From Candidatus Goldiibacteriota bacterium (lineage in GTDB: Bacteria; Oederibacteriota; PGYV01; DYJU01), in NCBI GenBank assembly GCA_938034975.1, contig CALHNI010000005.1, positions 60,718-124,717 of the forward strand: a stretch of 64,000 nt of DNA, given 5' to 3'. Of this stretch, positions 28,401-49,873 are shown one piece after another. The position numbers were made by a program, and so were the translations under genes. The stretch's first letter is position 1. Each line of letters opens with the position of its first letter. The notes under the pieces are model-generated. The model did not search any database. It saw only the letters and a program-made list of their open reading frames with translations, and was not told where the DNA came from.

Positions 28401-30685
28401 ACAAAAATCAGTTACTGGATCTTTCAAATTCATTTTTTAAAATAAACAATAAAAATGAATATTATTCTGATATTAAAATGCATCTTAAAGATTTTGTTTT
28501 TCGTGGAAACAGATTGAACGGAAATATCAACTTTTCGGGGCAGATAAATAATTATCAGGATTTAAAAATTAGGGGGTCTGTTTCCTCTGATAATTTTACA
28601 TTTTGCAGACACACATTTTCTCCTTTTATAATAAATGTAAATCTGGAAAAAGATGAGTTATTTTTAAAAACAAGTGAAAGTATTAAATGGAATAAATTAT
28701 ATGGTAATATAAAATTTTTAAAAAATAAAGTTTTTATAAAAGAATTTTCAATTGAAAATTCTTCTCATAAATTTCTTGATGCCCGCGGGTTTATCTGTTA
28801 TTCAGATGAAAACTCTGATTTTTCTGTAGAGATGTTTGATTATGAACCACAGATATTAAGCAATTTGCTTAACTGGACTCATGAGTGGAAAGGCTCTTTA
28901 AGCGGTAATATTAAGATCTCACGAAATACCATAAAAGGGCTTGCTTTTACAATATACCTTAAATTAACCAATGGTTCTTTTAATAATCTGGAATTTGATC
29001 TTTTTACAGGGCTTTTTTCATTGAAAGACAACTGGCTTGATATTTCTCCTGCTGGGCCTGCCATACTTACCAAAGAAGGAAAATATGAAATAAAAGCGCA
29101 GGGAAAAATACCAGTGCCAATGTCAGAGGAAGGAGTTCAGATTGTAAAAGGTGTTGAGATGGATATAACAGCAAATGTTAAGCAGGGCGATTTATCAATA
29201 ATAAAATTTATAAAATGGGTTGATACAGCGGAAGGATTATTAGATGCAGATATTAAAATAAAAGGCACAAAGGAGTTTCCATCAATAAGTGGTAAGATAA
29301 ATGTAACAGATGGTTCGGTTTCATTTAAATACCTGTTAAAAGATATAAAGCATATATTTGCCAATATACTTATCAAAGATAACGTAATTGATATATACAG
29401 TCTAAAAGGAGATTGCGGAAAAGGGATATTAAAAATAACCAATTTAAATGATGAAAAAAAAGGTGGATTGCTTAAAGAATATAAAATATATGAAGCAAAC
29501 TGGAAATTTAAAAATATCGGTGATAAGATAAGAATATCGGATACTAAATATATGGAATTTTTGGATGGAGATGCTGATGTAGATATTGAAATGAGCGGTC
29601 CAATTGAGAATCCTTTAATCAAAGGCGAATTGAAACTTTACAATACCAAATACACTTATCCGACAAAGATGATGTCTGAAAAGGGAGAAGAATTAAAGGA
29701 TTTAAAAACAAATTATGCAAAGCAGATAAACTGGGATTTAAATGTTTATTGCGGAGATAATTTTATGTATTACAGTACTTATGGAAATAATTATGCAGAA
29801 GTATTTGTAAGACCTTCTGATATGCCTTTTGTATTTAAAGGTAAAGGCAACGATCTTAAAATAACCGGAAATGGCATTATACAACGTGGAACATTTAAAT
29901 ATATGAATACTGATTTTACATTTGATGAAATGAGAGAGTCAAAAGTCGTTTTTGATGGAGATAAAAGGCCTGTTCTTGACATATATGCTAAAAGTAAAAT
30001 GAAAAGAATAAAATTGAACGGATATGAAGAAGAAAAAGATGTTGATGTATATCTAAAGGCATATGGACGGGTAGGTGATGTGCGTATAGATGTTTCATCA
30101 GAACCATCTCTTGACAGAAACAGAATATTTTATATTTTAACTTTTGGTAGCGATGTTCCCCAAGGTATAGATATAACAAAGATAGGGAAAGATGCAACAA
30201 TGCTTGCTGCTGATGCGCTTGCAAATTACTGGCTTAAAATAGGTGGTCAGGAAATAAAAAAAAGAACTCCGCTTGATTATGTTGATATAAAGTTAAAAGC
30301 AAGTGATTTTTTGGGAAGAGATGAAAAAAAGCAGGAAAATCAGCAGGATTCACCTAAAAAAACAACTGATACAGTTGATTCAACATCAAATACACCTTCT
30401 GCAATTGTTCAGATAGGGATGGGTAAATATTTAACAGATCAGCTTTATTTTGGTTATGACCTGAAATTATTCAAACATGGGATAAATCTTAATTTGGATA
30501 AGACAACAGAGGTTTATGATTTACAGCACATTTTAGGATTTGAATATTCACTTGATAATACAAAAAAACTTAAATTTTTTAGAACCTTTGGTTCACCTAA
30601 TTTGGGTCTAAAAGATGAAACATTTTTTGGTCTAGAAAGCAGAATATCTTTTGAAAGCTGGGATTCAAAAAACAAAGAAAAATAG
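25415..30685 (+). CDS. TamB/AsmA-like translocation-and-assembly-module protein (giant inner-membrane-anchored, periplasm-spanning beta-rich protein)
   Basis: 1756 aa. A single N-terminal TM anchor, a very long Asn/Lys/Ile-rich beta-strand-rich body, and a C-terminal DUF490-like end (..LQHILGFEYSL...FGSPNLGLKDETFFGLESRISFESW). Confidence 0.55.
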   Translation: MKIIRNIILLILSVIFLFMFFLIILAKIPTFTAIITDYVNSEIYKATGKNIRISSIEFGFIDNIKLKNISVPLKRTLSEGEFANIKEIILRFNIIDIILHKKEVAESLSGLIIKSPVFYIYKQDNKLNIHNFFYGFNEKKEKSQGKNIFLVLPVFKIFIEKGKIIYGDKDVKFFDSLESIDGNIFFDVKNKILKVVLDARLKESVKGKIKINADYYQEKNKLKANLKTENLNLNTVINYLFDNKEQPVKMVDITSDIDIYSADMKIENLKLNGYIKINNGIIFKNNIPINNINGHAIISNDKILINNFTFNIFQNPAFINGKLKNFFREIEYNFDVVINDFNLENLAKDFLSGNARLTFNIWGDKSAMEGKGKLFLDSAFINKIPIKNIEAGIKLEKGRFNLYDLKGKFAEGNLNGDFSVDIKNNEKLKGKINLQLVDFEKLVNEKDSDGKINFLCDISGKINMPFIKLQLNSDSIRYKKYKIKNIKGNIIYDDKKVEVFSYFDYMDYVFLKIYGNILFNENKIEIVNLNIKEKDLSLVSINGFLIPGEKQINIKSDFSNIVLSKLKIEYFKNKDIEAEFNANSIITGKVDSPVIGFKLNTQKLSINKEAYNLFCDVLYEKNAITIKELNFSNIVTGTAEFSLKKKLFTIMTDIKNLKGDVLKEVFGLHIFKDSQINGMANINKTSEGFGGAIVVNTSYKTGIYKQIEIDIKGEKNFFNINKLNIQQKNGFFNIAGNFNIKDDQDIFVDINGNAKNYQINNKLKIKFAIDSKSKITLADKIFSSFNLKFSDIKFNDRQLKDLVLNIKTENIDITSLKANWGENYFINGDFYSDIPRGYLRFDFKEADFFPFYTLFDIREKGLENDSLLNGYLEIKGPVDDSDFILYVSQVKGIARLSGKLNFNKNLNFFKLNRVSIDYNIMNCDLKKFVSIFIDNFENTGNFNAKGKVNGSPENLTSEGNMLLSGGVLQGFNYENINIDYIFEKNKLTLTKFNFYNKNQLLDLSNSFFKINNKNEYYSDIKMHLKDFVFRGNRLNGNINFSGQINNYQDLKIRGSVSSDNFTFCRHTFSPFIINVNLEKDELFLKTSESIKWNKLYGNIKFLKNKVFIKEFSIENSSHKFLDARGFICYSDENSDFSVEMFDYEPQILSNLLNWTHEWKGSLSGNIKISRNTIKGLAFTIYLKLTNGSFNNLEFDLFTGLFSLKDNWLDISPAGPAILTKEGKYEIKAQGKIPVPMSEEGVQIVKGVEMDITANVKQGDLSIIKFIKWVDTAEGLLDADIKIKGTKEFPSISGKINVTDGSVSFKYLLKDIKHIFANILIKDNVIDIYSLKGDCGKGILKITNLNDEKKGGLLKEYKIYEANWKFKNIGDKIRISDTKYMEFLDGDADVDIEMSGPIENPLIKGELKLYNTKYTYPTKMMSEKGEELKDLKTNYAKQINWDLNVYCGDNFMYYSTYGNNYAEVFVRPSDMPFVFKGKGNDLKITGNGIIQRGTFKYMNTDFTFDEMRESKVVFDGDKRPVLDIYAKSKMKRIKLNGYEEEKDVDVYLKAYGRVGDVRIDVSSEPSLDRNRIFYILTFGSDVPQGIDITKIGKDATMLAADALANYWLKIGGQEIKKRTPLDYVDIKLKASDFLGRDEKKQENQQDSPKKTTDTVDSTSNTPSAIVQIGMGKYLTDQLYFGYDLKLFKHGINLNLDKTTEVYDLQHILGFEYSLDNTKKLKFFRTFGSPNLGLKDETFFGLESRISFESWDSKNKEK

Positions 30686-33793: not shown

Positions 33794-34966
33794 ATGGCGG
33801 ATGTAATGTCTGAAATTGAAGAATTGAAAAAAAAATTATCACAAAATCCTGACTCTCTCATTTTTGTTCCTTTGGCTGATGCATATCGCAGGGCAGGTAT
33901 GCTTGATGAGGCAATAGAGGTATGCAAAAAAGGACTTGAAAAACATCAAAATTATACATCTGCCCGGGTTGTTTTAGGCAGAATTTATTCTGAAAAGAAT
34001 ATGCTGGATGATGCGATTTCTGAATTTAAAAAAGTAGAAGCAGTTGATGTTGATAATATAATGGTTCATTCAATGTTAGGTAATATATATTTAAAAAAAA
34101 AAAGATATGCTGAAGCAATTGAACAGTTTCAAAGAGTTCTTTCATTAAATCCAGAGGATCTGGAAACACAGGAGAAATTAAAAGAAGCACTTGCTGCAAA
34201 ACAGGAACCGGCTAAACCAGAATCACAACCAGTTGAAAAACCAAAAGTTGAAGAAAAATCAAATCAGGATCCTAATGAAGAATTACAAAAAAGTTTAAAA
34301 GTAGCTGAAATATATACAAAAAAAGAAGAGTTTGATAAAGCAATAGAAATATATAATGAAATTTTATCAAAGGATCCTGAAAATATTTCTGTGCAGCAAA
34401 AATTAAGAGAGGTTTATAATTTCCAGGAGAAAAAGCTGGAAAAAATAAAACAAAAAACTTCTCAGGTGAGTAAGAACGAAAATGATAAAATAACCACAGA
34501 AGATATACTTGTTGTAATGAAAGATGCTGTTAAAGAAACAGAAAAGGAAGTAAATAAAGAATCTGAAAAAATTGAGAAAACAGAATCAGGTGTTCTTTTT
34601 GATAGCCAAAAGGCAAAAGCAATAGAAAATATTTTAAAGGACTTAACCAATACAGACGGAATGGTGGGTGGAATTTTTTTGCAAAGAGATGGAAAGATTG
34701 TTGCAAGTGTTTTACCGCCTGATATAGATTCTTCTGAAATTGGTAAGGATATTGCACAGATAGTGGATAAAACAGAAAAATCAGTTCTTAATATGAAGCA
34801 AGGTAAATTAAACCATGCAATTATAGCATCAGAGTCCGGACAACTTTTATTTACAGAAATAAGTAATGGAGTTTTATTCATGATAGGAAATGAAAAGATA
34901 AATATGGGCAAAATGAGTTATGTTTTAAAAGATGTAGTTGCAAAAATAAAAGCACTTTTTAAATAG
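33794..34966 (+). CDS. TPR-repeat protein with a C-terminal Roadblock/LC7 (MglB-like) domain
   Basis: N-terminal TPRs (..A.AY...GM.DEAIE....), a Glu/Lys-rich linker, and a C-terminal ~110 aa GMVGGIFLQRDGKIVAS..P........IAQIV......LNMKQGKLNHAIIASESGQLLFTEISNGVLFMIG typical of Roadblock/LC7. Confidence 0.5.
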   Translation: MADVMSEIEELKKKLSQNPDSLIFVPLADAYRRAGMLDEAIEVCKKGLEKHQNYTSARVVLGRIYSEKNMLDDAISEFKKVEAVDVDNIMVHSMLGNIYLKKKRYAEAIEQFQRVLSLNPEDLETQEKLKEALAAKQEPAKPESQPVEKPKVEEKSNQDPNEELQKSLKVAEIYTKKEEFDKAIEIYNEILSKDPENISVQQKLREVYNFQEKKLEKIKQKTSQVSKNENDKITTEDILVVMKDAVKETEKEVNKESEKIEKTESGVLFDSQKAKAIENILKDLTNTDGMVGGIFLQRDGKIVASVLPPDIDSSEIGKDIAQIVDKTEKSVLNMKQGKLNHAIIASESGQLLFTEISNGVLFMIGNEKINMGKMSYVLKDVVAKIKALFK

Positions 34967-34992
34967 ACAAAAACGGAGGAATATTAAAATAA

Positions 34993-35349
34993 ATGGATTT
35001 TAAAACAGTGTTACAAAAAGTAGTTGAAAATGTTGATGGCGCAATCGGAGCAGCTGTAATTGGCGAAGATGGGATAGCGATAGATCAGTTTACAACCAAA
35101 GCGGATTTTGATATTACAGCCGCAGGTGCTGAATATTCAACTATAATAAGTAGTGCAAAAAAAGCATCTAAAAGTTTCGGACTCGGAAAAACAAATGAGG
35201 TTTTAATATCAACAGAAAAGGCAACTATGATAATGATGATGATGGAAAAAAATCTGTTTGTAACTCTTGCTTTAAATCTTGATGGAAACCTTGGAAGGGG
35301 TAGATTAGAATTAAAAAAAGCAATTCCTGAACTGGAAAAGCTAATTTAA
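34993..35349 (+). CDS. Roadblock/LC7-domain protein (MglB-like)
   Basis: 118 aa. VDGAIGAAVIGEDGIAI........D...AGAEYS.II......K.FGLGKTNEVLISTEKATMIMM...NLFV.L.L.LDGNLGRGRLELKKA matches the Roadblock fold pattern. Confidence 0.6.
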   Translation: MDFKTVLQKVVENVDGAIGAAVIGEDGIAIDQFTTKADFDITAAGAEYSTIISSAKKASKSFGLGKTNEVLISTEKATMIMMMMEKNLFVTLALNLDGNLGRGRLELKKAIPELEKLI

Positions 35350-35352
35350 CCT

Positions 35353-36144
35353 ATGTTCCTAAGGGTTTTGAAAAGAACATTCTGGGTATTTTATGATAAT
35401 CTGTTAAAAGGAATAATATTTAATTTTTTTCTTTTTATTATTTTTCTCATTCCTGTCATTTTTGCTTTTAAAATGAAAAAATACGAGTTTTTTTTTCTTG
35501 ATATTGTTTTGTGGCATATTTTTATTCCTCCTGTTATGTTTTATTTTATTAAAATAATAAGAGTAGAAGAAACAAAAAATTTTTTTTATGAATTTTTAAC
35601 TGGATTACGTTTTTTTGCTATAAAAAGTTTTATTATATTGATTATAAATATTTTATTTATTATTGTTGCTTTTGTCAGTATAAATTTTTATAAAAATATG
35701 ACACAGTTAAAACAGATTGCGTTGATTTTAGGTGGGATTGGGATATGGATTTTTTTTATTTTTATTTTAATGCAGATTTATATTTTACCTGTTTTTGTTC
35801 TTGATGAAAAAAGAAGGATTTTTACAACTTTTAAAAAAGCGCTAATAATGGTCATATCGGCTCCTTTCAGTTCTTTTTTTATTTTTTTACTGATTGTTTA
35901 TCTTCTTGTTTTATTTTATCCGATTTTTTTGATTATGTTTGGAAATAAAATATCATTTTTCCTTGCTTTTTTCTCGCTGTTTCCCATTTTTTTATTGCCA
36001 TTTATAAGTTTTACATTTATAATATTAATGCAGACAAATGCAACGTTTTTATTATATGAAAAGTATAAAATCTTTCAGGATTTAACAGAAATCTGGGAAG
36101 AAAAAAGTTTATCAAATATTTTTAAACCCTGGGAGACAAAGTAA
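35353..36144 (+). CDS. hypothetical polytopic membrane protein
   Basis: 263 aa, about 6-7 hydrophobic helices, Phe/Ile-rich. Confidence 0.4.
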   Translation: MFLRVLKRTFWVFYDNLLKGIIFNFFLFIIFLIPVIFAFKMKKYEFFFLDIVLWHIFIPPVMFYFIKIIRVEETKNFFYEFLTGLRFFAIKSFIILIINILFIIVAFVSINFYKNMTQLKQIALILGGIGIWIFFIFILMQIYILPVFVLDEKRRIFTTFKKALIMVISAPFSSFFIFLLIVYLLVLFYPIFLIMFGNKISFFLAFFSLFPIFLLPFISFTFIILMQTNATFLLYEKYKIFQDLTEIWEEKSLSNIFKPWETK

Positions 36145-36146
36145 AA

Positions 36147-36440
36147 ATGTGGAAGACAAAGAGGATGGCTGTAAAACAAGGGAAAAAAGGTTTACTGCTG
36201 ATTCTTATTCTTGCTTTTTTAACTTTTGAATTTTTAAAAGGTTTTTATAAATATGTTTCAATGGCTATAAGAGAAAAACAGATAGAACAGGAAATTGAAA
36301 TTTTAAAACAAAAAAATGAGGATTTAAGACTGAAATTAAACAATATTTATGATAATAAAGATTTTATTGAACAACAGGCAAGGAAATTAAATCTTATAAA
36401 AGATGGAGAAATTGTTTTTATAATAAAGAAAACTGAATAA
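36147..36440 (+). CDS. ftsB: septum-formation initiator FtsB/DivIC-like protein
   Basis: 97 aa: N-terminal TM followed by a coiled coil (EQEIEILKQKNEDLRLKLNNI). Confidence 0.5.
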   Translation: MWKTKRMAVKQGKKGLLLILILAFLTFEFLKGFYKYVSMAIREKQIEQEIEILKQKNEDLRLKLNNIYDNKDFIEQQARKLNLIKDGEIVFIIKKTE

Positions 36441-36469: not shown

Positions 36470-39379
36470 ATGCGCAAAATAAATAAAATTTTATTTTTTT
36501 TAATATTGATTTTTTTTATATCTGTTTATACATTTGCTTTAAATAAAATAAGATATAAAGATTTTAACTGGTTCATTTATGAGACTGATAATTTTTATGT
36601 TTATTATTATAAAGGTGCTGAGTTTTTGGCTAAAATATCAGCAATTTATGCAGAAGAAGCATATAATAAAATAAGCAGAGAACTTAATTTTAAATCCAAG
36701 GAAAAAATCCCGCTTTTTATTTATGATTCCCATCAGGCATTTACAACAACAAATATTACACTTTCTTTTCTTGGCGAGGGAACAGGCGGATTCACAGAGA
36801 TGTTTAAAAACAGAGTGGTTTTGCCAGGCAATGGTTCTTTAAAATCATTAAGACAGGTCATTTTTCATGAAATAACGCATGCGTTTCAGTATAAGTTAAT
36901 ATATGGAGAAGGAGGAATGCTCTCATATGCTTCATTATACAAAGATCTTTTTATACCTTTATGGGTTATGGAAGGCAGTGCCGAGTATTTTGCTGATGAT
37001 TTTGATACAATCGGTGATATGATTTTAAGAGATGCAGTTATAAATAACAGATTAATATCAATTGATAAATTGGATGGTTTTTCACATCTTGAAGAAGTTT
37101 ATCTTGCCTATAAGGAAGCGCAGAGTATTTATATTTACCTTGCAAATAAATACGGAAAAGAAAGAATAGGTGAATTTTTAAATGGTTTCCGCGGGGATGC
37201 CGGTTTGGATATAATTTTTAAAAAGGTATTTAAAAAAGAATTTTCAGATTTTCAAAAAGAATGGGAATTTTATTTAAAGAAAAAATACTGGACGCAGGTT
37301 CAGGGCAGGGATAAGCCAGAAAAATACGGACCCAAATTAACTGAAAATAATCATAATTACATAGTTTATAATCAGGCACCTTCACTTTCTCCTGATGGAA
37401 AATATATTGCTTTTATATCAACGCGGGATGGAAACAGAGCAATTTATATAATGAGAAATGATGGAAAAGAAATGAGGCAGGTTTTTGGAAACAGATTTGA
37501 AGGTATTTCAACTGACGGTTTTCCGATTTCATGGTCAAATGATAACAAAACAATTTATTTTGTTTCAAAAGAAAAAGGAAGGAAATATATATTCAAAGGC
37601 AATATTGAAACAGGAAATTTGGAAAAAATTATAATCCCGGAATTTGATGTTCTGTATTCTCCGGCAATATCTCCTGATGAAAGATATATTGCTTTCATTG
37701 GTTTAAAAGACGGGTTTTCAGATGTTTATATACATGATACAGAAAAAAAAGAGACAATGAATATCACCAGGAATATTTTTGCGAATAATTATGTGAGCTG
37801 GTCAAAAAATGGTGATATGCTTGTTTTTACAGAAGAAAGAAATGATTATAACAGATTGGTTATTTTTGATATAAAATCAGGTAATAAAAAATTTTTAACA
37901 AAAATAGTTAAATATGATTATTTGGCGCCAAAATTTTTAAATGATAAAGAGTTAGTTTGTATATCGGATAAAAACGGGGTTTTAAATGTTTATAAAATAG
38001 ATATAAAAAATGGTAATGAATATCAACTAACCAATGTAATAAATGGTATTTTCGGTATTTCGGTTAGTGATAATTATATTGTTTATTCTTATTATGAAGA
38101 TGCGTGTTATAACATTTATAAATACCTTATATCAAAAAAATATGAATTTACAAAAATACCACTTATCTATAATGAAGCATTTTTGGAAAATAAGGAAAAA
38201 AAAGAAGAAAAATTTTTTAATTATGAAAAAAAATACACACCTATAATTAAAATGCCAGAAGAAGGTGATGATATAGAATTTAAAGAAGAAATAGAAGAAA
38301 TTGCAAAAAAAACAATTAAAAACAATGAAGAATATACCATAAAATTTACACCGGATATATTTTTTGCTTTGCTTGGATTTAGCACTGATACTGGACCTGT
38401 AGGTGGTGCTTATATTCTTGCTTCTGATATGCTTGGAGATAATAATTTAGGGCTGCTTGCGAATTTTATACCAGGGTATTTTTCACAATTTGAATTTAAT
38501 TATTTATTTTTAAAACTTCCTTTTGATATTGGATTTAACTTTTTTTATTATCAGAATATTTATAAATTATATGATATAAGAACCAATTCGTTTTTTTCAC
38601 AGCTTGACACAACAGAAATAGGAGGAAGTATTCAGATTAGTTATCCTTTGAGTTTATATGCGAATCTTGGACTTTCACTCGGAACAAAGAGAATAACTGA
38701 TAAATATATAAATTATGATACAAGCAGTATTTATTCTTTTAATGAAAATGAGTCAAATATTTTAAATACTTTGGCATTTTATTTTGTAAATGATTTTTCT
38801 TCATGGCGTGATTTCTGGACATATTCAGGAGATTTTATTTTATTTTATGTGGAAATGTCAGATAAAATTTTTGGAGGGACAAAGACATATACTATTTATG
38901 AAATTGATTTAAGAAAATATTTTGACCTTTCATCTTTTATTTATAAAAATCTCAGTTTTAATTTAAGGATATTAGGTGCAATGACAGAAGGGAATGATAA
39001 ACCATATTTTCTTTGCGGAGGATTAAATACAATAAGGGGATTAAAATACGGCGAGTATATAGGAGATAAGGTTTTAATAACAAATTATGAATTACGTTAT
39101 ACATTGGCAAAAAATTTTGATTTTTCAATATGGCCCTTGCAATTTTTAATGTTTAAAAATTTAAAAATTGCTTTGTTTGATGATGCCGGAATTGTAAAGT
39201 CGGGTATAATTGATAAATTAACCAATGAAGAGATAAAAAACGGAATAGGTATGAGTTTGATAATTGATGCATTTTTAATTCAGAGACAATTTTTACCATT
39301 GAGATTTGATATAGCAAGGAGAACTGATATCGGGGATTCTTCCTGGAAATTTTATTTTTCCTTCAGCACGGGATTTTAA
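36470..39379 (+). CDS. composite outer-membrane protein: signal peptide + HExxH zincin-like domain + PD40/TolB-type beta-propeller repeats + C-terminal Omp85/surface-antigen-like beta-barrel
   Basis: 969 aa. Signal peptide; VIFHEITHAFQ...E.EGSAEYF (HExxH...E); repeated PD40 motifs (SLSPDGKYIAFISTRDGNRAIYIM, YSPAISPDERYIAFIGLKDGFSDVYI, VSWSKNGDMLVFTEERNDYNRLVIF); ends ...WKFYFSFSTGF with a terminal Phe (OM beta-barrel signature). Confidence 0.5.
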   Translation: MRKINKILFFLILIFFISVYTFALNKIRYKDFNWFIYETDNFYVYYYKGAEFLAKISAIYAEEAYNKISRELNFKSKEKIPLFIYDSHQAFTTTNITLSFLGEGTGGFTEMFKNRVVLPGNGSLKSLRQVIFHEITHAFQYKLIYGEGGMLSYASLYKDLFIPLWVMEGSAEYFADDFDTIGDMILRDAVINNRLISIDKLDGFSHLEEVYLAYKEAQSIYIYLANKYGKERIGEFLNGFRGDAGLDIIFKKVFKKEFSDFQKEWEFYLKKKYWTQVQGRDKPEKYGPKLTENNHNYIVYNQAPSLSPDGKYIAFISTRDGNRAIYIMRNDGKEMRQVFGNRFEGISTDGFPISWSNDNKTIYFVSKEKGRKYIFKGNIETGNLEKIIIPEFDVLYSPAISPDERYIAFIGLKDGFSDVYIHDTEKKETMNITRNIFANNYVSWSKNGDMLVFTEERNDYNRLVIFDIKSGNKKFLTKIVKYDYLAPKFLNDKELVCISDKNGVLNVYKIDIKNGNEYQLTNVINGIFGISVSDNYIVYSYYEDACYNIYKYLISKKYEFTKIPLIYNEAFLENKEKKEEKFFNYEKKYTPIIKMPEEGDDIEFKEEIEEIAKKTIKNNEEYTIKFTPDIFFALLGFSTDTGPVGGAYILASDMLGDNNLGLLANFIPGYFSQFEFNYLFLKLPFDIGFNFFYYQNIYKLYDIRTNSFFSQLDTTEIGGSIQISYPLSLYANLGLSLGTKRITDKYINYDTSSIYSFNENESNILNTLAFYFVNDFSSWRDFWTYSGDFILFYVEMSDKIFGGTKTYTIYEIDLRKYFDLSSFIYKNLSFNLRILGAMTEGNDKPYFLCGGLNTIRGLKYGEYIGDKVLITNYELRYTLAKNFDFSIWPLQFLMFKNLKIALFDDAGIVKSGIIDKLTNEEIKNGIGMSLIIDAFLIQRQFLPLRFDIARRTDIGDSSWKFYFSFSTGF

Positions 39380-39384
39380 CATAA

Positions 39385-40203
39385 ATGGATTTTGTTAATT
39401 CTGCAATTTTGGGTTTGGTCCAGGGGTTTACCGAATTTTTACCAATAAGTTCAACTGCGCATTTAATAATTGTGCCTTTTTTACTTAAAATTAAAGAGGA
39501 ATTTTTAAAATCTCTTGTCTTTGATGTTTTTTTGCATTCAGGAACTTTGTTAGCTGTATTGATTTATTATAAAAATAAGATAATAAAAATAATAGTTGCT
39601 TTTTTAAAAGGCATATATAATAAGGATAAAAGGGAGAATATTGATTTTAAACTTGCATTATATATAATATTTGCATCATTGCCTGCTTTTATTTTTGGCT
39701 ATTTTTTTAAAGATATAATTGAACGAGTTTTCAGAAATCCTGTTTTTCCTGCTTTATTTCTGATAATTTTTGCAATTTTACTTCTTTTAGCGGATAGAAA
39801 AAAGAATCAGGAAAAAGAATTAGCAAAATTAAATTTTATTGATGCTATAACAATAGGATTTTTTCAGGTAATTGCATTATTACCCGGAGTTTCAAGGTCA
39901 GGTATTACAATAACCGCGGGTCTTTTTTTGGGATATAAAAGAACTGATGCGGCAGAATTTTCTTTTTTAATTTCAATACCTGTAATTTCAGGTGCTGTTG
40001 TTTTTAGCATAAAAGATATTTTGGAAAAAAAAACAGATAGCGCGGATTTAATTATTTTAATCACGGGATTTGTTTTTGCTTTTTTGTCGGGTATTATTGC
40101 GATTAAATTTTTACTTTCTTATGTGAAAAAATTTTCATATCTGATTTTTGTTGTTTACAGAATAATTCTTGGTTTTATTATTCTGCTTCTTTTATTTTCT
40201 TAA
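39385..40203 (+). CDS. uppP: undecaprenyl-diphosphatase UppP (BacA)
   Basis: AILGLVQGFTEFLPISSTAHL and LPGVSRSG.TI motifs; 8 TM; 272 aa. Confidence 0.85.
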   Translation: MDFVNSAILGLVQGFTEFLPISSTAHLIIVPFLLKIKEEFLKSLVFDVFLHSGTLLAVLIYYKNKIIKIIVAFLKGIYNKDKRENIDFKLALYIIFASLPAFIFGYFFKDIIERVFRNPVFPALFLIIFAILLLLADRKKNQEKELAKLNFIDAITIGFFQVIALLPGVSRSGITITAGLFLGYKRTDAAEFSFLISIPVISGAVVFSIKDILEKKTDSADLIILITGFVFAFLSGIIAIKFLLSYVKKFSYLIFVVYRIILGFIILLLLFS

Positions 40204-40210
40204 AAAAAAA

Positions 40211-40975
40211 ATGAAAATAAAATTTTTAGGAACAGGAACATCGCATGGTGTCCCGCTTATTGGTTGTAATTGCAAAACCTGTAAATCAAAAGATTTAAAA
40301 AATAAAAGATACAGAACTTCCATTTTTATAAATGATAATAATACAAATATATTAATTGATACTCCGCCTGAGTTTCGTTTGATGGCAATTGAATATGAAA
40401 TAAAAAAAATAGATGCAGTATTTTTTACGCATGCCCATATGGACCATATTGCCGGTTTTGATGATATAAGAAGATTTAATGAAATTCAGGGTAAGGAAAT
40501 AAATACTTATTCAGATAAAAAAAATCTAAAAGAAATAAAAAAACGATTCAGCTATATATATGAAAAAACACAATTGGGTGGCGGAAAACCCAAAGTTAAT
40601 TTTATAGAAATAAAACCTTATTTCCAATTTAAGGTAAATAATTTAAAAATTATACCATTGACTGTATTTCATGGGGATATTAAAGTAATTGGATTTAGAA
40701 TAAAAAATTTTGCTTATATAACCGATGTTTCAAAAATTCCGGAAAAAACATATAAATATTTAGAAAATCTTGATGTTTTAGTGCTTGATGCTTTAAGAAT
40801 AGAAAAACATCCGACACATTTTAATTTGGCTCAGGCGATATCTGAGGCAAAAAAAATAAATGCCAAAAGAACTTTTTTTACACATATTTCCCATTCATTA
40901 GAACATGGTAAAACAGAAAAAATTTTACCCCAAAATATCAAATTGGCTTATGATGGTTTGGAAATAAAAATTTAA
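40211..40975 (+). CDS. MBL-fold metallo-hydrolase (PhnP/GloB-like). The ORF-track start at 40169 overlaps uppP; the ATG at 40211 is preferred.
   Basis: Starts MKIKFLGTGTSHG..., has a HAHMDHIAG zinc motif and a later H..L.......E....NAKRTFFTHISH. Confidence 0.65.
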   Translation: MKIKFLGTGTSHGVPLIGCNCKTCKSKDLKNKRYRTSIFINDNNTNILIDTPPEFRLMAIEYEIKKIDAVFFTHAHMDHIAGFDDIRRFNEIQGKEINTYSDKKNLKEIKKRFSYIYEKTQLGGGKPKVNFIEIKPYFQFKVNNLKIIPLTVFHGDIKVIGFRIKNFAYITDVSKIPEKTYKYLENLDVLVLDALRIEKHPTHFNLAQAISEAKKINAKRTFFTHISHSLEHGKTEKILPQNIKLAYDGLEIKI

Positions 40976-44335: not shown

Positions 44336-47300
44336 ATGAAAATTGAAAAAAAAGAGATAGTTTTAAACTTTGAAATAGTTATAAAAGAACAGGATGGCCA
44401 TTTTATAGGTGAATGCATTGAATTGCCAGGACTTATTGTTAGCGGAGCAAATAAAAATGAGGTTATAAAAAATATTAAAGCGGCAATACCACTTTATTTA
44501 AAATATGTGCCAAAAGAGTCCTTTATACCTGTTTATGAAAATTCAATGACTCCTATAATATATGATTTTGAAGAATTCAATGGTTTTTTATATGCAGCAT
44601 CAAGCAAAGATGTGGTTTTAAAAACCCCCACCGGTGATGTTGGTTCATGGGAAAATATAAACATAACAAATATATTTTCGCCTTATTTTAATCCGCCTGT
44701 GGGAAAAATAAGGGATTTTACAACAGAAGATCTTGGTGATTATACGCCTCAGATATACTGTCTTAAATTTTTTAGTGACCTTGGAACACCAAAACTTTAC
44801 TGCGGAACAAATGCCAATGGCGGGATTTATGAAACGCTTGATGGTAAAAAATGGAGCTTATCATTTAACAGTGGTGAAGCAAGAGTGCATTGCCTTGAAG
44901 TTTTCAAAGGGAAACTTTTTGCTGGCACATCAACAGAAGGTAAAATATACAGTTATAATGGTACAAATTGGACAATTTCAAATGCAACAACTGAACTTGC
45001 TATTGTCTCTTTCGGGCTTTTCAGGGATTATCTTTATGCTGGCACTTACCCGAACGGCATAATATTCAGGACAGCAGATGGTATAAACTGGCAGAAAGTA
45101 TTTGATACAAATCAGAGTTTTGTAAATAGTTTTTGTGTTTTTAAAAACAGGTTATATGCTGCTACATCAAAAGCATCCGGTGCCCTTGTTTTTATGACAG
45201 AGGATGGAACAAACTGGGTTGAAAATTTTTTTTCTGAAAAGGATCCTAATTTTTTTAAATTTGCTGTTTTTGCAAATGCTCTTTATCTTGGGACAGGCGA
45301 TAATGGAAGAGTATATAAAACTTTAGACGGTAAAAAATGGGAACTTGCATTCCAGACAGATGAAGAAGATATAAGAGCCATAACAGTTTTTAATGGTTAT
45401 CTATATTTTGGCTCATCACCCAAAGGCAGAATATTTAAAACAATTGAAAGCAATGTGCCGCCACCAAAAGCGTATGATATTGAGATAAGCGAAGTGACGT
45501 CCCACAGCGCAGTTATAACATGGAAAACAGATAGGGAAGCAAACACTATAATAGAATATGGTTTGGATAAAAATTATGGTAATAATATTATAAATGAGAC
45601 AAAAACTGTAAATCATAAAATTACTTTGAATAATTTAAAAGCATTAACAACCTATCATTTTAGAATACTTACTTTTTCTGATATGGGAAGTTTTTCAGGT
45701 ATACTAGAAGATTATAGTTTTACAACCAGTGCGGCAGTTACGCCTGTTATTTCATCAAAGACGCATAGTGACCAGAATAAATGGTATTCTTCAATGGAAT
45801 GTGAACTAAACTGGGGCATACATCCTGAGGTAAAAAATTATTACTATTTATTTGATAAAAATCCTGAAACGGTTCCTGATATTTCAAAGTGTAATGTAAC
45901 GGCAAAAGAAAGCACTATTATAAAATTGCCGGAAGATGGAATATGGTATTTTCATTTACTTATTGAAGATAAAGCAGGAAATATAAGCACATCTGTTTCC
46001 CATTTTACAATAAAGATTGATACTTCGGCTTTGCCTCCTGATGTTTTTTCACCCACACACCCTGATAATACTAAATGGTATAATAACAGCAACGTTGTTT
46101 TAAAATGGAATCCACCCGATGATCTTTCAGGGATTGAAGGATATTATTTTATGATTGATGACTTACCTGGAACATTGGTAAATGAAAAATCTGGCAGGTT
46201 TACGTCTGATACTCAAATTTCAATAAAAATTCATGATGATGGAGTAAAATATTTTCATATTATATCAAAAGATAAGGCAGGTAATATAGGAACAAAGGCA
46301 ACACATTTCAGGATAAACATTGATACGCATTCTTTGCCACCTATAATAAGTTCTAAAACTCATCCTGATACAGAATCATGGTATAATGAAAGAGAGGCAG
46401 AAATTCATTTTGCAAAACCCCATGATTTATCAGGAATTGAAGGATTTTATTATTATGTGGATAATAATAAAACACCGAATGAAAATGTTGACTGGTCTTT
46501 CATTGAATCAGGAGATATAAAAATTAAAGTTAATCAGGATGGGATATGGTATGTTCATGCAAAATCAAAGGATTTGGCAGGAAATATATCAAAAGAAATA
46601 TCAAGTTTTAAATTAAAGATAGATACCCAGGCGTTACCACCTAACATATCTTCCTTAACACATCCTGATCCTAATAAATGGTATAATATTAAACGTGCCC
46701 AGTTTAAAATATATCCTTCTGATGATTTATCTGGCATAGAAGGTTATTATTATTTAATTGATACAAAAGAAAAAACAATTCCTGATACAACATCAGTTTG
46801 GCTTGATAAAGACACAATTTTTACGCCTGATTTAAAAGATGGCGAATGGTATTTACATATCATAACAAAAGATAAAGCAGGGAATGTTGGGATTTTGGCT
46901 TCTCATTTTAAATTTAATATTGATACTACAGCCAAGCCACCCAAAGTTTTTTCAAAAACACACCCGAACCAGGAGGAATGGTATAATAATCCAAATCCGG
47001 AATTACACTGGGAAACCCCTGAGGACCTTTCAGGCATAGAAGGTTATTATTATATTGTTGATAATAAACAAAATACAATACCAACAAAAGAAAACGGTGA
47101 ATGGATAAAGACAAATCAGGTTGTTCTTTCACAAATGGAAGATGGAATTTTTTATTTTCATATTGTTTCAAAAGATTATGCCGGTAATATAGGTTTTGAA
47201 GCAGAACATTTTAAAATAAAAATAGATACAAAAGTTGAATCTCCAAAAGTTATGTCATTGACGCATCCTGATGAAAACAAATGGTATAATAGCCAGATTG

Positions 47301-49873
47301 TAAAATTGTCATGGTCAGTTCCGCATGATTTGTCAAAAATAAGAAATTTTTATTATTTACTTTCCCAGGAAAAACAATTAAAGATAAATCCTGCTCTTGC
47401 AACAAAGACAGAAAAAAGAGAAATTGATTTTAATCTGGCAGAAGAAGGTATTTATTATTTTCATATAATAGGTGAGGATAACGCTGGTAATATAGGCGAT
47501 GAACCGGCTATATTTACGATTAAAATAGATTTAAAAGCCGAGCCGCCTGAGGTAATATCAACAACGCATCCCAATCCGGAAAAATTTTATTCAAATGTAA
47601 ATCCTGTTTTTGTTATAGAAAAAGTAAATGATTTATCTGGTGCTGATGGATTTTATTATATTGTTGATAAACAACCGGAAACAATACCAGATAAAAAAAC
47701 AGGAAGATTTGTAAATGATACAACTATAAAAATTCCGGAAAAATTAGAAGATGGTGAATGGTATTTTCATATTGTTTTAAAAGATAAAGCAGGTAATTTA
47801 GGAACAAAAGCTACACATTATAAATTTAAAATTGAGACAACACCGCCTGAGGCGCACATAAAGGAATTACCACAATTTGTTGCATCCGATACTTTTGAAG
47901 TTAAATGGACAGGTTCTGATAAAGAATCTGGAATAAATTGTTTTACCATAGAATACAAAGAAGGTGAAAAAGGAAAATGGAAAACCTGGCTTTTGGAAAC
48001 AAAAGCGCAATCAGGAATTTTTAAAGGAGAAGATGGTATTACTTATTATTTCAGAATAAAAGCAAAAGATAATGCGGGAAACTGGTCGGATTTTTTTGAG
48101 GATGAAAAAATAAAAACAACGATAGATATATCACCTCCTTCACCTGTAACCCAGATAGTTGCAAAGCCAATTGCTGGCGGAAAAATTTTACTGGAATGGA
48201 ATAAATCTTTGGATTCAATAAGTGGCCTTGATTTTTACAGGATATACAGGTCAACATCAAGCGGACAACTTGGGATGCAGATAAATAATGATGGTGAAAC
48301 AAAAGAGACGAAGTTTATTGATGAATCAAAAGAACTGGAAGATGGTATTATTTATTACTATACAATAAGAGCAGTGGATAAAATAGGAAATGAAAGGGAA
48401 AGTGGCAATAAGCAGATTTTTGCTATATGTGACAGAATTGCATTACCACCTGTAATTTCATCAATTACACATCCAATACAAGATCAGTGGTATAATCATA
48501 AAAATATAAAATTAACATGGAATACACCGCAAGATGCAACGAGGATAAATGGTTATTATTATATATTTGACCAGCTGTCAACAACTGTGCCTGATGCAAA
48601 AACAGGGAATTGGATTACAGAAAACGAAATAGACATTAACAATGTATCTGATGGGACGTGGTATTTTCATATAATATCAAAAGATGATGCCGGAAATTTA
48701 TCAGAAGAAGCAACTCATTTTAAGATAAATATAGATACAACAAAACCCAAACCACCGGTTGTTTCTTCTATTACACATCAGGATCCAAACCAGTGGTATA
48801 ATAATAATTCACCTTCTTTTTCATGGACAATACCTTCTGACCCGGCAGGAATAGAAGGTTATTATTATATTTTTAATCAGATGAAAAATGTGGTGCCTGA
48901 CATTGCTACATCAAGTTGGACAAAAGGAACAATTGCGTCTTTTGTTGATGTTCCGGACGGGATATGGTATTTTCATATCATTGCAAAGGACACAGCAGGT
49001 AATATTTCTGAAGAAGTTTCCCATTTTCAGATAAATGTTGCAATGTCGCCGCCGCCGCCTTATGTTTTTTCAGCATCACATCCTGACCAGGAAAAGTGGT
49101 ATAGGGAAAGAAATGTAAAGATACAATGGAAACCTGTAAAATATGTAAATGAAATAATAGGGTATTATTATGTTCTTGATAATAATGAAGGAACAATTCC
49201 AACGGTTAAATCAAATAAAACAATGGATACAAATGTGAATTTTCAGGATTTAAAAGATGGAATTTACTATTTTCATATAATATCGGTTGATAAAGAAGGT
49301 GTAATTGGAAGGACCGCGGCTCATTATAAAATAAAAATCAAGACAAAAATAACTTTAAAAGGAGTCATAACACAATCTAATGGAATTATGCCTTTGCCTG
49401 GTGCAACGGTTGAGGTGATGAAAGAAGATGGCACAACGCTTGGGGTTTCAATTTCAGATAAAGAAGGTAATTATCAAATAGAAAATTTATCCGTTGGGAA
49501 AGTAAAGATAAAAGTTCTTGCCAAAAATCTTCCGCCACAGATGATTTATGATATAGAATTAACCGAGGACCAGTCAGAAAGAATATTAAATATATCTTCT
49601 GAAATATTTGCAATCTATGAACCATCAACAGAAAAAATAATTTTTAATTATTATATACCTGAAAACGGATTGGTTACTATAAAAATTTATACCGAAAGTG
49701 GTAAAATACTTCATACCATAGAAGAAAAAAAGACAGGTAAAATATACAATAATTCTTTTTGGAATGTTAAAGATATAGAAGATGGAATATATCTTTACCA
49801 GATAACTTCAAAAGGTGATGCAACAGGAAAATTAACCAGATACGCTATAAGGAAAATAAAAAAAGGAAAATAA
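44336..49873 (+). CDS. giant multi-domain protein: HicB-like N-terminal domain + BNR/Ycf48-like beta-propeller + FN3 + ten ~100-aa tandem repeat modules + CarboxypepD_reg-like domain + C-terminal T9SS/FlgD-Ig-like sorting-type beta-sandwich
   Basis: 1845 aa. aa 1-60 match the HicB/UPF0150 pattern (FEIVIKEQDGHFIGECIELPGLIVSGANKNEVIKNIKAAIPLYL). Propeller repeats (LYAGT..G.IY.T.DG..W). FN3 (VTSHSAVITWKTDREANTIIEYGLD). Ten repeats of THPD..KWYN...WN.P.DLSGIEGYYY..D......P..............DG.WYFH....DKAGN.G....HF.I.ID. The C-terminus LVTIKIYTESGKILHTIEE...WNVKDIEDGIYLYQITSKGD resembles type-A CTD/FlgD-Ig. Confidence 0.6.
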   Translation: MKIEKKEIVLNFEIVIKEQDGHFIGECIELPGLIVSGANKNEVIKNIKAAIPLYLKYVPKESFIPVYENSMTPIIYDFEEFNGFLYAASSKDVVLKTPTGDVGSWENINITNIFSPYFNPPVGKIRDFTTEDLGDYTPQIYCLKFFSDLGTPKLYCGTNANGGIYETLDGKKWSLSFNSGEARVHCLEVFKGKLFAGTSTEGKIYSYNGTNWTISNATTELAIVSFGLFRDYLYAGTYPNGIIFRTADGINWQKVFDTNQSFVNSFCVFKNRLYAATSKASGALVFMTEDGTNWVENFFSEKDPNFFKFAVFANALYLGTGDNGRVYKTLDGKKWELAFQTDEEDIRAITVFNGYLYFGSSPKGRIFKTIESNVPPPKAYDIEISEVTSHSAVITWKTDREANTIIEYGLDKNYGNNIINETKTVNHKITLNNLKALTTYHFRILTFSDMGSFSGILEDYSFTTSAAVTPVISSKTHSDQNKWYSSMECELNWGIHPEVKNYYYLFDKNPETVPDISKCNVTAKESTIIKLPEDGIWYFHLLIEDKAGNISTSVSHFTIKIDTSALPPDVFSPTHPDNTKWYNNSNVVLKWNPPDDLSGIEGYYFMIDDLPGTLVNEKSGRFTSDTQISIKIHDDGVKYFHIISKDKAGNIGTKATHFRINIDTHSLPPIISSKTHPDTESWYNEREAEIHFAKPHDLSGIEGFYYYVDNNKTPNENVDWSFIESGDIKIKVNQDGIWYVHAKSKDLAGNISKEISSFKLKIDTQALPPNISSLTHPDPNKWYNIKRAQFKIYPSDDLSGIEGYYYLIDTKEKTIPDTTSVWLDKDTIFTPDLKDGEWYLHIITKDKAGNVGILASHFKFNIDTTAKPPKVFSKTHPNQEEWYNNPNPELHWETPEDLSGIEGYYYIVDNKQNTIPTKENGEWIKTNQVVLSQMEDGIFYFHIVSKDYAGNIGFEAEHFKIKIDTKVESPKVMSLTHPDENKWYNSQIVKLSWSVPHDLSKIRNFYYLLSQEKQLKINPALATKTEKREIDFNLAEEGIYYFHIIGEDNAGNIGDEPAIFTIKIDLKAEPPEVISTTHPNPEKFYSNVNPVFVIEKVNDLSGADGFYYIVDKQPETIPDKKTGRFVNDTTIKIPEKLEDGEWYFHIVLKDKAGNLGTKATHYKFKIETTPPEAHIKELPQFVASDTFEVKWTGSDKESGINCFTIEYKEGEKGKWKTWLLETKAQSGIFKGEDGITYYFRIKAKDNAGNWSDFFEDEKIKTTIDISPPSPVTQIVAKPIAGGKILLEWNKSLDSISGLDFYRIYRSTSSGQLGMQINNDGETKETKFIDESKELEDGIIYYYTIRAVDKIGNERESGNKQIFAICDRIALPPVISSITHPIQDQWYNHKNIKLTWNTPQDATRINGYYYIFDQLSTTVPDAKTGNWITENEIDINNVSDGTWYFHIISKDDAGNLSEEATHFKINIDTTKPKPPVVSSITHQDPNQWYNNNSPSFSWTIPSDPAGIEGYYYIFNQMKNVVPDIATSSWTKGTIASFVDVPDGIWYFHIIAKDTAGNISEEVSHFQINVAMSPPPPYVFSASHPDQEKWYRERNVKIQWKPVKYVNEIIGYYYVLDNNEGTIPTVKSNKTMDTNVNFQDLKDGIYYFHIISVDKEGVIGRTAAHYKIKIKTKITLKGVITQSNGIMPLPGATVEVMKEDGTTLGVSISDKEGNYQIENLSVGKVKIKVLAKNLPPQMIYDIELTEDQSERILNISSEIFAIYEPSTEKIIFNYYIPENGLVTIKIYTESGKILHTIEEKKTGKIYNNSFWNVKDIEDGIYLYQITSKGDATGKLTRYAIRKIKKGK

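Follow-up and report, generated by a model that had tools for sequence, protein, structure and literature searches.

A zincin–propeller–barrel protein from an uncultured Goldiibacteriota bacterium joins the WD40-like Omp85 subfamily and is probably an outer-membrane-anchored metalloendopeptidase

What does a protein do that joins a peptidase-like domain, a beta-propeller and an outer-membrane barrel in one chain, and on which side of the outer membrane does it work? Such a protein, 969 aa long, is encoded by a single ATG-start open reading frame (ORF) at 36470..39379 (+) in the ORF listing of a 64-kb stretch of Candidatus Goldiibacteriota DNA (assembly GCA_938034975.1, contig CALHNI010000005.1, positions 60,718 to 124,717 of the forward strand; hereafter the window). 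A first-pass annotation, made from the letters alone, had read a signal peptide, an HExxH zincin-like domain, a PD40/TolB-type propeller and an Omp85-like barrel in this chain. It proposed either a divergent barrel partner of a TamB-like protein or an outer-membrane-anchored periplasmic protease. Our analysis with Pfam, AlphaFold2 (AF2) and Foldseek showed that all these domains were correctly recognised, and the features quoted for them (VIFHEITHAFQ...MEGSAEYF, the PD40 repeats and the terminal ...FYFSFSTGF) are all in the sequence. The protein consists of five parts in order: a Sec signal peptide, a gluzincin, a six-bladed PD40 propeller, a hypervariable linker and a 16-strand Omp85 barrel. 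It adds one more member to an Omp85 subfamily that is catalogued and widespread yet uncharacterised by experiment. Of the two proposals we favour the second: from the domains, the catalytic residues and the precedent of the Omp85 protein PlpD, we put at roughly 0.6 the probability that this is an outer-membrane-anchored, periplasm-facing metalloendopeptidase for envelope-protein processing or quality control.

The N-terminal domain (aa 24-285, 36539..37324, +) was assigned by Pfam and Foldseek to the gluzincin metallopeptidases of clan MA, and it carries an M9 collagenase-like active-site signature. Pfam Peptidase_MA_2 (PF13485) matched residues 61-270 (E 2e-13, 51 bits vs a cut-off of 32.4). 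We analyzed conservation in an alignment of 63 sequences that are 27-83% identical. The zinc-binding HExxH motif, here HEITH (H133, E134 and H137; 36866..36880, +), is invariant in 63/63. The downstream segment E168-G-S-A171-E172 (36971..36985, +) supplies the third zinc ligand (E168), the Ala of the hydrophobic basement and the His-stabilising Glu; E168 is again invariant, while A171 is found in 52/63 and E172 in 58/63. Upstream, G106-G107-F108-T109-E110 (36785..36799, +) forms a Gly-Gly and edge-strand motif in which G106, G107, F108 and E110 are invariant, together with K113 and R115 nearby. Q140, three residues past H137, is present in 46/63. The distance from G107 to H133 is 26 in every sequence and that from H137 to E168 is 29-31. 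The zincin is the best-conserved domain of the protein, with 34 columns at 90% or more. With key residues kept in 63/63 down to 27% identity, the catalytic machinery is, as judged from the alignment, under strong purifying selection.

To see the fold of this domain we had to model it alone, since Foldseek results for the full-length model were swamped by TolB and BamA matches and did not show the peptidase. The full-length AF2 model was built on the 63-sequence alignment and came out confident (mean predicted local distance difference test (pLDDT) 88.5, predicted template modelling score (pTM) 0.87), with pLDDT below 50 confined to the signal peptide (1-23) and residues 557-589. In it the N-terminal domain is mixed alpha/beta and then helical (34-277, DSSP). 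The separate domain model, built from 22 sequences, reached a pLDDT of 78; its Gly-Gly/edge-strand segment has low confidence, whereas the same segment is confident in the full-length model. Foldseek matched the separate model to a series of catalytic gluzincin domains. They include the M9 peptidase domains of ColG, ColT and ColH (E 1.5e-5 to 9e-4, template modelling score TMq 0.61-0.66), the M30 lugdulysin and the M1 catalytic domains of IRAP, tricorn factor F3, LTA4H, ColAP and ERAP1/2.

The active site of M9 collagenases, as described by Eckhard et al. 2013 (PMC3711286), combines HExxH with a third-ligand Glu 28-30 residues past the second His, a Gln one helical turn past HExxH (Gln462 in ColH), an Ala and a Glu at +3 and +4 from the ligand Glu, and a double-Gly motif before the edge strand. 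The domain under study, for which ColG, ColH and ColT are the closest fold match, has all of these in common with M9: the Glu about 28-31 residues downstream of HExxH, the Gln at +3 from the second His, the Ala +3/Glu +4 pair and the Gly-Gly before the edge strand. This point-by-point match argues that the peptidase is very probably active, and that it resembles an M9-type endopeptidase more than an M1 exopeptidase; endopeptidase rather than exopeptidase activity is thus what the sequence suggests. The domain differs from M9 in its low identity (14-16%), in lacking an activator, PKD or collagen-binding domain, in a Gly-Gly-to-HExxH spacing of 26 (29 in M9) and in an edge-strand Glu that lies one position earlier. 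Collagen would also be an implausible substrate in the periplasm. No M9 family hidden Markov model (HMM) matched the protein in Pfam or NCBIfam searches. Membership in M9 was therefore rejected on the identity and the missing accessory domains, and we describe the zincin as M9-like. We also considered an M1 aminopeptidase with GGFTE as a GAMEN-like motif. This candidate was rejected because the His-Glu spacing of 29-31 and the second-shell residues fit M9; in M1 the corresponding spacing is about 18.

These residues also bear on whether the domain is an enzyme at all. If the HExxH domain were degenerate, as in pseudo-peptidases, the protein would be an outer-membrane-anchored binding platform in the periplasm. 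When the zincin profile was searched against the Protein Data Bank (PDB) by sequence alone, the outcome could be taken in this sense, with an insignificant match only (3cia, E 0.25), and the fold comparison was needed. We nevertheless consider a non-catalytic scaffold very improbable: the zinc ligands, the catalytic Glu, the Gly-Gly element and the second-shell Gln, Ala and Glu persist to the most distant members, the domain scores above the Pfam gathering threshold, and its model superposes on active catalytic domains. The earlier assignment of the HExxH region to a zincin is upheld in the same way, since the region aligns to catalytic gluzincin domains and not to a structural one.

Behind the peptidase comes the six-bladed TolB-like PD40 beta-propeller (aa 286-555, 37325..38134, +), identified by PD40, DPPIV_N, AF2 and Foldseek. 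Pfam PD40 matched three stretches (E 5.7e-19) and DPPIV_N matched residues 288-407 (E 1.2e-10); the PD40-type repeats quoted in the first-pass annotation are present (SPDGKYIAFISTRDG...IYIM). The TolB equivalog TIGR02800 covered the propeller part alone (E 1.6e-30, 106 bits vs a cut-off of 343), and a sequence search of the PDB returned TolB propellers alone, at about 1e-10. In the AF2 model, 23 short strands make six four-stranded blades between 300 and 553 (DSSP). Foldseek with the full-length model matched TolB 6pnv (E 1.2e-10, root-mean-square deviation (rmsd) 2.9 Å over 236 columns), and overall the propeller shared with TolB superposes at an rmsd of 2.7-2.9 Å over about 235 residues. The protein differs from TolB in lacking the N-terminal alpha/beta domain and in scoring far under the equivalog cut-off, and no tol or pal genes are found among its neighbours in the window. 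The TolB propeller binds Pal and disordered colicin segments, while the propellers of DPP-IV, prolyl oligopeptidase and tricorn limit access to active sites and filter substrates.

The C-terminal part (aa 617-969, 38318..39376, +) was identified by AF2 and Foldseek as a 16-stranded Omp85-type beta-barrel ending in the beta-signal ...FYFSFSTGF. The domain HMM searches that matched Peptidase_MA_2 and PD40 did not detect Pfam PF01103 in this protein at E<=1, and the barrel assignment therefore needed independent support. NCBIfam Omp85_fam gave a sub-threshold match on 786-966 (E 6.4e-11, 42 bits vs a cut-off of 200), and PF01103 is precomputed for many full-length homologs. By DSSP, residues 626-965 of the AF2 model hold 16 long strands, where pLDDT is for the most part above 85, and Foldseek with the full-length model matched the BamA/TamA barrels 7bnq, 7nre and 4c00 (probability 1.00, E ~1e-10, TMt up to 0.60). 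The first-pass annotation had called this region beta-barrel-like and noted its aromatic C-terminus, and the predicted strands and structural matches agree with it. The motifs are those of the superfamily. In the loop-6 motif T854-I-R856-G857-L858 (39029..39043, +), the equivalent of the Omp85 (V/I)RG(F/Y), R856 and G857 are invariant in 63/63. In the FxDxG motif F903-D-D905-A-G907 (39176..39190, +), D905 is invariant and F903 and G907 are kept at 90% or more. The C-terminal residue is F, Y or W in 62/63 family members, Phe in the present protein. TamA and BamA thus share with it a 16-strand barrel, the loop-6 RG, FxDxG and the C-terminal aromatic residue; unlike them, it has no POTRA, does not lie beside tamB or bam genes and carries an enzyme-propeller module instead.

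No POTRA domain (PF07244) was found in the protein by Pfam or in the AF2 model, nor in the precomputed Pfam lists of 120 homologs. Heinz & Lithgow 2014 (PMC4104836) set the Omp85 superfamily by the barrel alone and recognised POTRA-less subfamilies. In place of POTRA, the propeller and the barrel are joined by a low-complexity Lys/Glu-rich linker (aa 556-616, 38135..38317, +), which AF2 predicts as disordered save one short helix (602-615). In homologs its length runs from 25 to 102 aa. We compared 47 distant members with the query domain by domain and found identities of 40% for the zincin, 29% for the propeller, 27% for the barrel and 12% for the linker. A most conserved zincin and a least conserved linker, which sometimes holds an Fn3 spacer, are what one would expect if an enzyme sat on a tether. 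The spacer occurs in the homologs P0053-P0074 (about 1,040-1,100 aa), where an Fn3-like domain is inserted in the linker, at residues ~640-720 in P0054 for example. In the N-terminal region, the precomputed Pfam lists of the same homologs add PF04450 and PF19527 and so point to a variant zincin subtype. Two apparently barrel-less homologs of 611 aa were considered as soluble forms and set aside as poor evidence: P0098 stops inside the linker, and the C-terminus ...IGRAHV of P0029 is a translated Illumina adapter (ATCGGAAGAGCACACGTC), so that its barrel-less form is an assembly artefact at a contig end.

We then asked on which side of the outer membrane the enzyme would stand. The N-terminus, MRKINKILFFLILIFFISVYTFA followed by LNK, is a typical Sec signal (aa 1-23, 36470..36538, +) with probable cleavage after TFA. 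No lipobox Cys was found on reading the signal peptide. The region is a low-confidence helix (2-19) in the AF2 model and is poorly conserved among homologs. BAM, the beta-barrel assembly machinery, inserts barrels through an aromatic C-terminal beta-signal, and when a barrel is even-stranded, as with 16 strands, its N- and C-termini both face the periplasm. The best precedent for the arrangement is PlpD, which, like the present protein, has a hydrolytic enzyme at its N-terminus joined covalently to a 16-strand Omp85 barrel. Its enzyme domain was long thought to be secreted and has been shown experimentally to be periplasmic (PMC11116518). PlpD differs in that its enzyme is a patatin-like phospholipase instead of a zincin, and it has one POTRA, no propeller and forms a homodimer, whereas our protein has a propeller and no POTRA; no Pfam match to patatin (PF01734) was found in it. 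The periplasmic position of both barrel termini and of the PlpD enzyme makes it most likely that the zincin-propeller module is suspended from the inner face of the outer membrane.

The opposite orientation would make the protein a surface-displayed or secreted protease, whose zincin-propeller passenger moves through or alongside its own Omp85 barrel, as proposed for type Vd secretion, and serves nutritional protein degradation. Heinz & Lithgow raised this possibility for enzyme-bearing Omp85s. The best zincin fold matches are secreted enzymes (the collagenases and the M30 lugdulysin), the disordered linker with helix 602-615 before strand 1 superficially resembles autotransporter linkers, and many host lineages are, by their record titles, organotrophs of sediments and digesters. 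Against this, the type Vd prototype PlpD keeps its enzyme domain in the periplasm, and threading an already folded domain through an Omp85 barrel is regarded as energetically unfavourable (PMC11116518). Omp85 barrels are moreover closed by loop 6, whose RG motif is invariant in the 63 homologs, and a helix of 14 residues is short for spanning a barrel. The pTM of 0.87 suggests that the three domains pack in a defined way, which is also what AF2 predicts for periplasmic PlpD. Surface display is on these grounds unlikely.

We propose that Sec would export the protein and that BAM would insert it into the outer membrane via the C-terminal 16-strand barrel and its aromatic beta-signal, the zincin-propeller module staying periplasmic on a flexible tether of variable length. 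There, the M9-type gluzincin endopeptidase would be packed beside the six-bladed TolB-like propeller. Unfolded polypeptides are the substrates that the propeller would most likely recruit or gate, and the zincin would then cleave them. The role would be in envelope protein processing or quality control at the inner face of the outer membrane, although the substrate class is a guess. A functional parallel is BepA, likewise a periplasmic zinc metalloprotease with an interaction repeat domain at an Omp85 barrel, which degrades stalled outer-membrane proteins at BAM (PMC8423444, PMC13478230, PMC13067283). The two are not homologous (M48 vs M9-like MA_2 zincin, TPR vs propeller), and BepA, a soluble protein of its own, associates non-covalently with BamA, whereas the protease described here is fused to its own barrel. 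An extension of the proposal would be a self-contained quality-control machine, in which a BamA-like lateral gate captures stalled or misfolded outer-membrane protein strands, the propeller threads them and the zincin cuts them, replacing the BAM-BepA/DegP arrangement in many non-proteobacterial phyla. We regard this bolder version as doubtful. If the proposal of a tethered periplasmic protease is true, Omp85 barrels would be general anchoring platforms for periplasmic enzymes, and a widespread envelope protease would be revealed in many poorly studied phyla.

Several points weigh against a periplasmic processing protease. The barrel is assigned from the model, the motifs and the homologs, PF01103 having gone undetected in the protein itself. 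Helix 602-615 directly precedes beta-strand 1 in the model and may be periplasmic or lie inside the barrel lumen, as in autotransporter linkers. The secreted collagenases, as the closest structural relatives of the modelled zincin, could argue for an extracellular role. The absence of a broadly conserved neighbour, detailed below, deprives the protein of hints to its substrate, and no functional study of the subfamily was found in the literature searched, up to mid-2026.

The subfamily in question was catalogued by Heinz & Lithgow 2014 (PMC4104836), who split the Omp85/TpsB superfamily into ten subfamilies. Their WD40-like (WD40-Omp85) group combines PF07676 repeats with PF01103 and lacks POTRA. 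Table S3 of that work lists about 100 members (e.g. B0VIY2, H1XQ58 and D0MEQ5) with three kinds of Phyre2 template: BamA/TamA (4K3B/4C00), TolB (2W8B/2IVZ) and a column headed "best aminopeptidase hit" (1Z5H, 4KXD, 4AR1/4AR9 and 3QNF). By their UniProt accession prefixes, the listed members appear to include proteins of Rhodothermus marinus, Salinibacter ruber, Cytophaga hutchinsonii, Anaeromyxobacter, Geobacter and Vibrio vulnificus. The main text discussed the propeller alone, as a "BamA-BamB fusion", and the peptidase stands only in the supplementary column (PMC4104836). The templates matched here by Foldseek fall into the same classes: 4c00 and BamA barrels, 2w8b/2ivz, and 4ar1/4ar9/1z1w/3qnf. 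The part order of our protein (zincin, PF07676 TolB-like propeller, PF01103-type barrel, no POTRA) is that of the WD40-like subfamily, with no architectural difference; what it adds is a new low-GC sequence from an uncultured lineage. The "Metallo" subfamily of the same authors, which carries PF00149, is a different group (PMC4104836). WD40-Omp85 is also listed by Iqbal et al. 2016, Hanson et al. 2024 state that these subfamilies "have not been well characterized", and a 2024 Leptospira paper (PMC11358297) mentions an Omp85 subfamily with "divergent WD40 and peptidase domains". The first-pass annotation had been unable to place the architecture in a characterised family. This holds in so far as the family is uncharacterised, but the architecture itself has been on record since 2014 (PMC4104836).

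Relatives are numerous and constant in architecture. A word-indexed search gave 1,097 homologs among the scored candidates, nearly all of which have 920-1,100 aa and an identical domain list. The two nearest share 83% and 69% identity with our protein, and Goldbacteria-labelled sequences come next at about 50%. An exact-sequence look-up returned no identical record, and the protein is at most 83% identical to anything on record. With one peptide pattern alone, relatives were found in at least 582 species-representative genomes across many phyla. Their record titles name Goldiibacteriota, FCPU426, Firestonebacteria, Poribacteria, Zixibacteria, KSB1 and Cloacimonadota, as well as Eisenbacteria, Ignavibacteria, Gemmatimonadota, Latescibacterota, Elusimicrobia and Leptospiraceae. 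At least one metagenome-assembled genome (MAG) contains two paralogs. An exhaustive HMM search with the zincin profile retrieved 13,506 50%-identity clusters at E<=1e-3 and 1,244 at E<=1e-30; the best 150 clusters are mostly 900-1,130 aa long, with the zincin at about 20-300. A Cloacimonas-lineage homolog (P0077) is 30% identical over 99% coverage and is not the entry listed in Table S3. Database names of the relatives are generic: "hypothetical", "PD40 domain-containing", "Tol biopolymer transport system component" or "BamA/TamA family outer membrane protein". For a specialist the architecture would be recognisable, and the present sequence, from an uncultured organism, adds a sequence and not a new concept. 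What is new on the family is that conservation is highest in the peptidase and not in the propeller, on which the 2014 work laid stress, and that the family has a complete M9-like active-site signature, a hypervariable tether and no conserved operon partner, TamB included.

The other proposal of the first-pass annotation was that the barrel serves a TamB-like protein. It was right that a TamB-like gene lies about 6 kb upstream and that no TamA is nearby: the gene (25415..30685, +) encodes 1,756 aa with PF04357 (E 2.9e-25) and ends 5.8 kb upstream of our gene, and no other Omp85 or BamA was found in the window by a Pfam scan of the large ORFs. More broadly, the protein could be an outer-membrane biogenesis factor, its barrel acting as insertase or translocase (a TamA-like partner of TamB or a "BamA-BamB fusion"), with the propeller as scaffold and the zincin as accessory. 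This would be in keeping with the Omp85 proteins characterised before PlpD, all of which act in protein assembly or translocation, with the conserved Omp85 functional motifs of the family, with the TamB-like gene upstream in a window without TamA and with the BamA-BamB-like fusion suggested by Heinz & Lithgow. However, DUF490 of TamB binds POTRA1 of TamA, which has three POTRA domains, and TamB without TamA is normal in many lineages, where it pairs with BamA (PMC5582053). The protein has no POTRA, and a role as TamB partner is therefore not supported.

To learn whether the two genes travel together, we searched all window neighbours by tblastn against 80 related loci. TamB and the intervening genes lie within 10 kb of the homolog at a single one of them (1/80), the 83%-identical and syntenic locus L001, and at none of the other 79. 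Nine unrelated housekeeping genes separate TamB from our gene, among them those for SIR2, an ACT-domain protein, peptide deformylase, an Rce1-like protease, a TPR-Roadblock protein, a Roadblock protein, a membrane protein and FtsB. We also clustered 671 flanking ORFs in an unbiased way, and no neighbour was conserved in more than 12/80 loci; none of the conserved neighbours is TamB, and recurring clusters are lineage-specific, an aroA-like one for example. Operon-based functional inference was accordingly rejected, the best partner reaching 12/80 loci. The TamB connection is coincidental. A biogenesis role is contradicted further by the propeller, which is six-bladed and TolB-like, whereas that of BamB is eight-bladed (PMC11358297), by the zincin and not the barrel being the most conserved part, and by multiple paralogs in several genomes. 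We consider this role quite improbable. The most conserved peptidase, the M9-like signature, the hypervariable tether and the missing operon partner together argue for a PlpD-like enzyme on a barrel rather than an insertase.

The gene stands in a dense, co-directional array in a window of 28.9% G+C. Locally it follows ftsB/DivIC (36147..36440) and precedes uppP/BacA (39385..40203) and the gene for an MBL-fold hydrolase (40169..40975). Outside the four closest lineages, neither UppP nor the MBL hydrolase follows the gene. Scans for promoters and terminators around it gave no meaningful difference from shuffled sequence. The TamB-like gene directly follows a ClpB/ClpC-type AAA+ chaperone gene (22954..25389) and has no adjacent Omp85 gene, unlike the tamA-tamB or Borrelia tamB-bamA arrangements. 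The syntenic locus L001 is DYJU01000018.1, in which synteny extends from TamB to the MBL hydrolase. Its label "Candidatus Methylomirabilis sp." looks doubtful because its G+C is 28.7%, like that of the window. Methylomirabilis genomes are G+C-rich, and the nearest named relatives of our protein come from Goldiibacteriota and FCPU426 MAGs.

Upstream of ftsB, 33794..35349 (+) encodes a 390-aa TPR protein that ends in a Roadblock/LC7 domain and, directly after it, a stand-alone Roadblock/LC7 protein of 118 aa, which is 97% identical in L001. This TPR-Roadblock pair resembles an MglB-like regulatory module, and a TPR-containing relative lies upstream in 10/80 related loci. Between the Roadblock gene and ftsB, 35353..36144 (+) encodes a 263-aa polytopic membrane protein that is 78% identical in L001 and matched no Pfam family even at E<=1. 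Further downstream, the 869-aa ORF at 55694..58303 (+), which belongs to no Pfam family (best match E 0.054), is a Thr-rich repeat lipoprotein and not a barrel. Its signal peptide contains a lipobox-like LFSLDC, and long Thr-rich "TFT/TPT" spacers set apart two repeated modules, each of about 150 aa. At the C-terminus stands an array of repeats of about 45 aa (G.PYVA[YF].D...K.SV.KYNG..W..[VL]G..G[FI]S.G), which look like an unclassified propeller-type repeat. Finally, 44336..49873 (+) encodes a giant protein of 1,845 aa with Big_13, fn3, Ig-like and CarboxypepD_reg domains, which is probably surface-exposed or adhesin-like.

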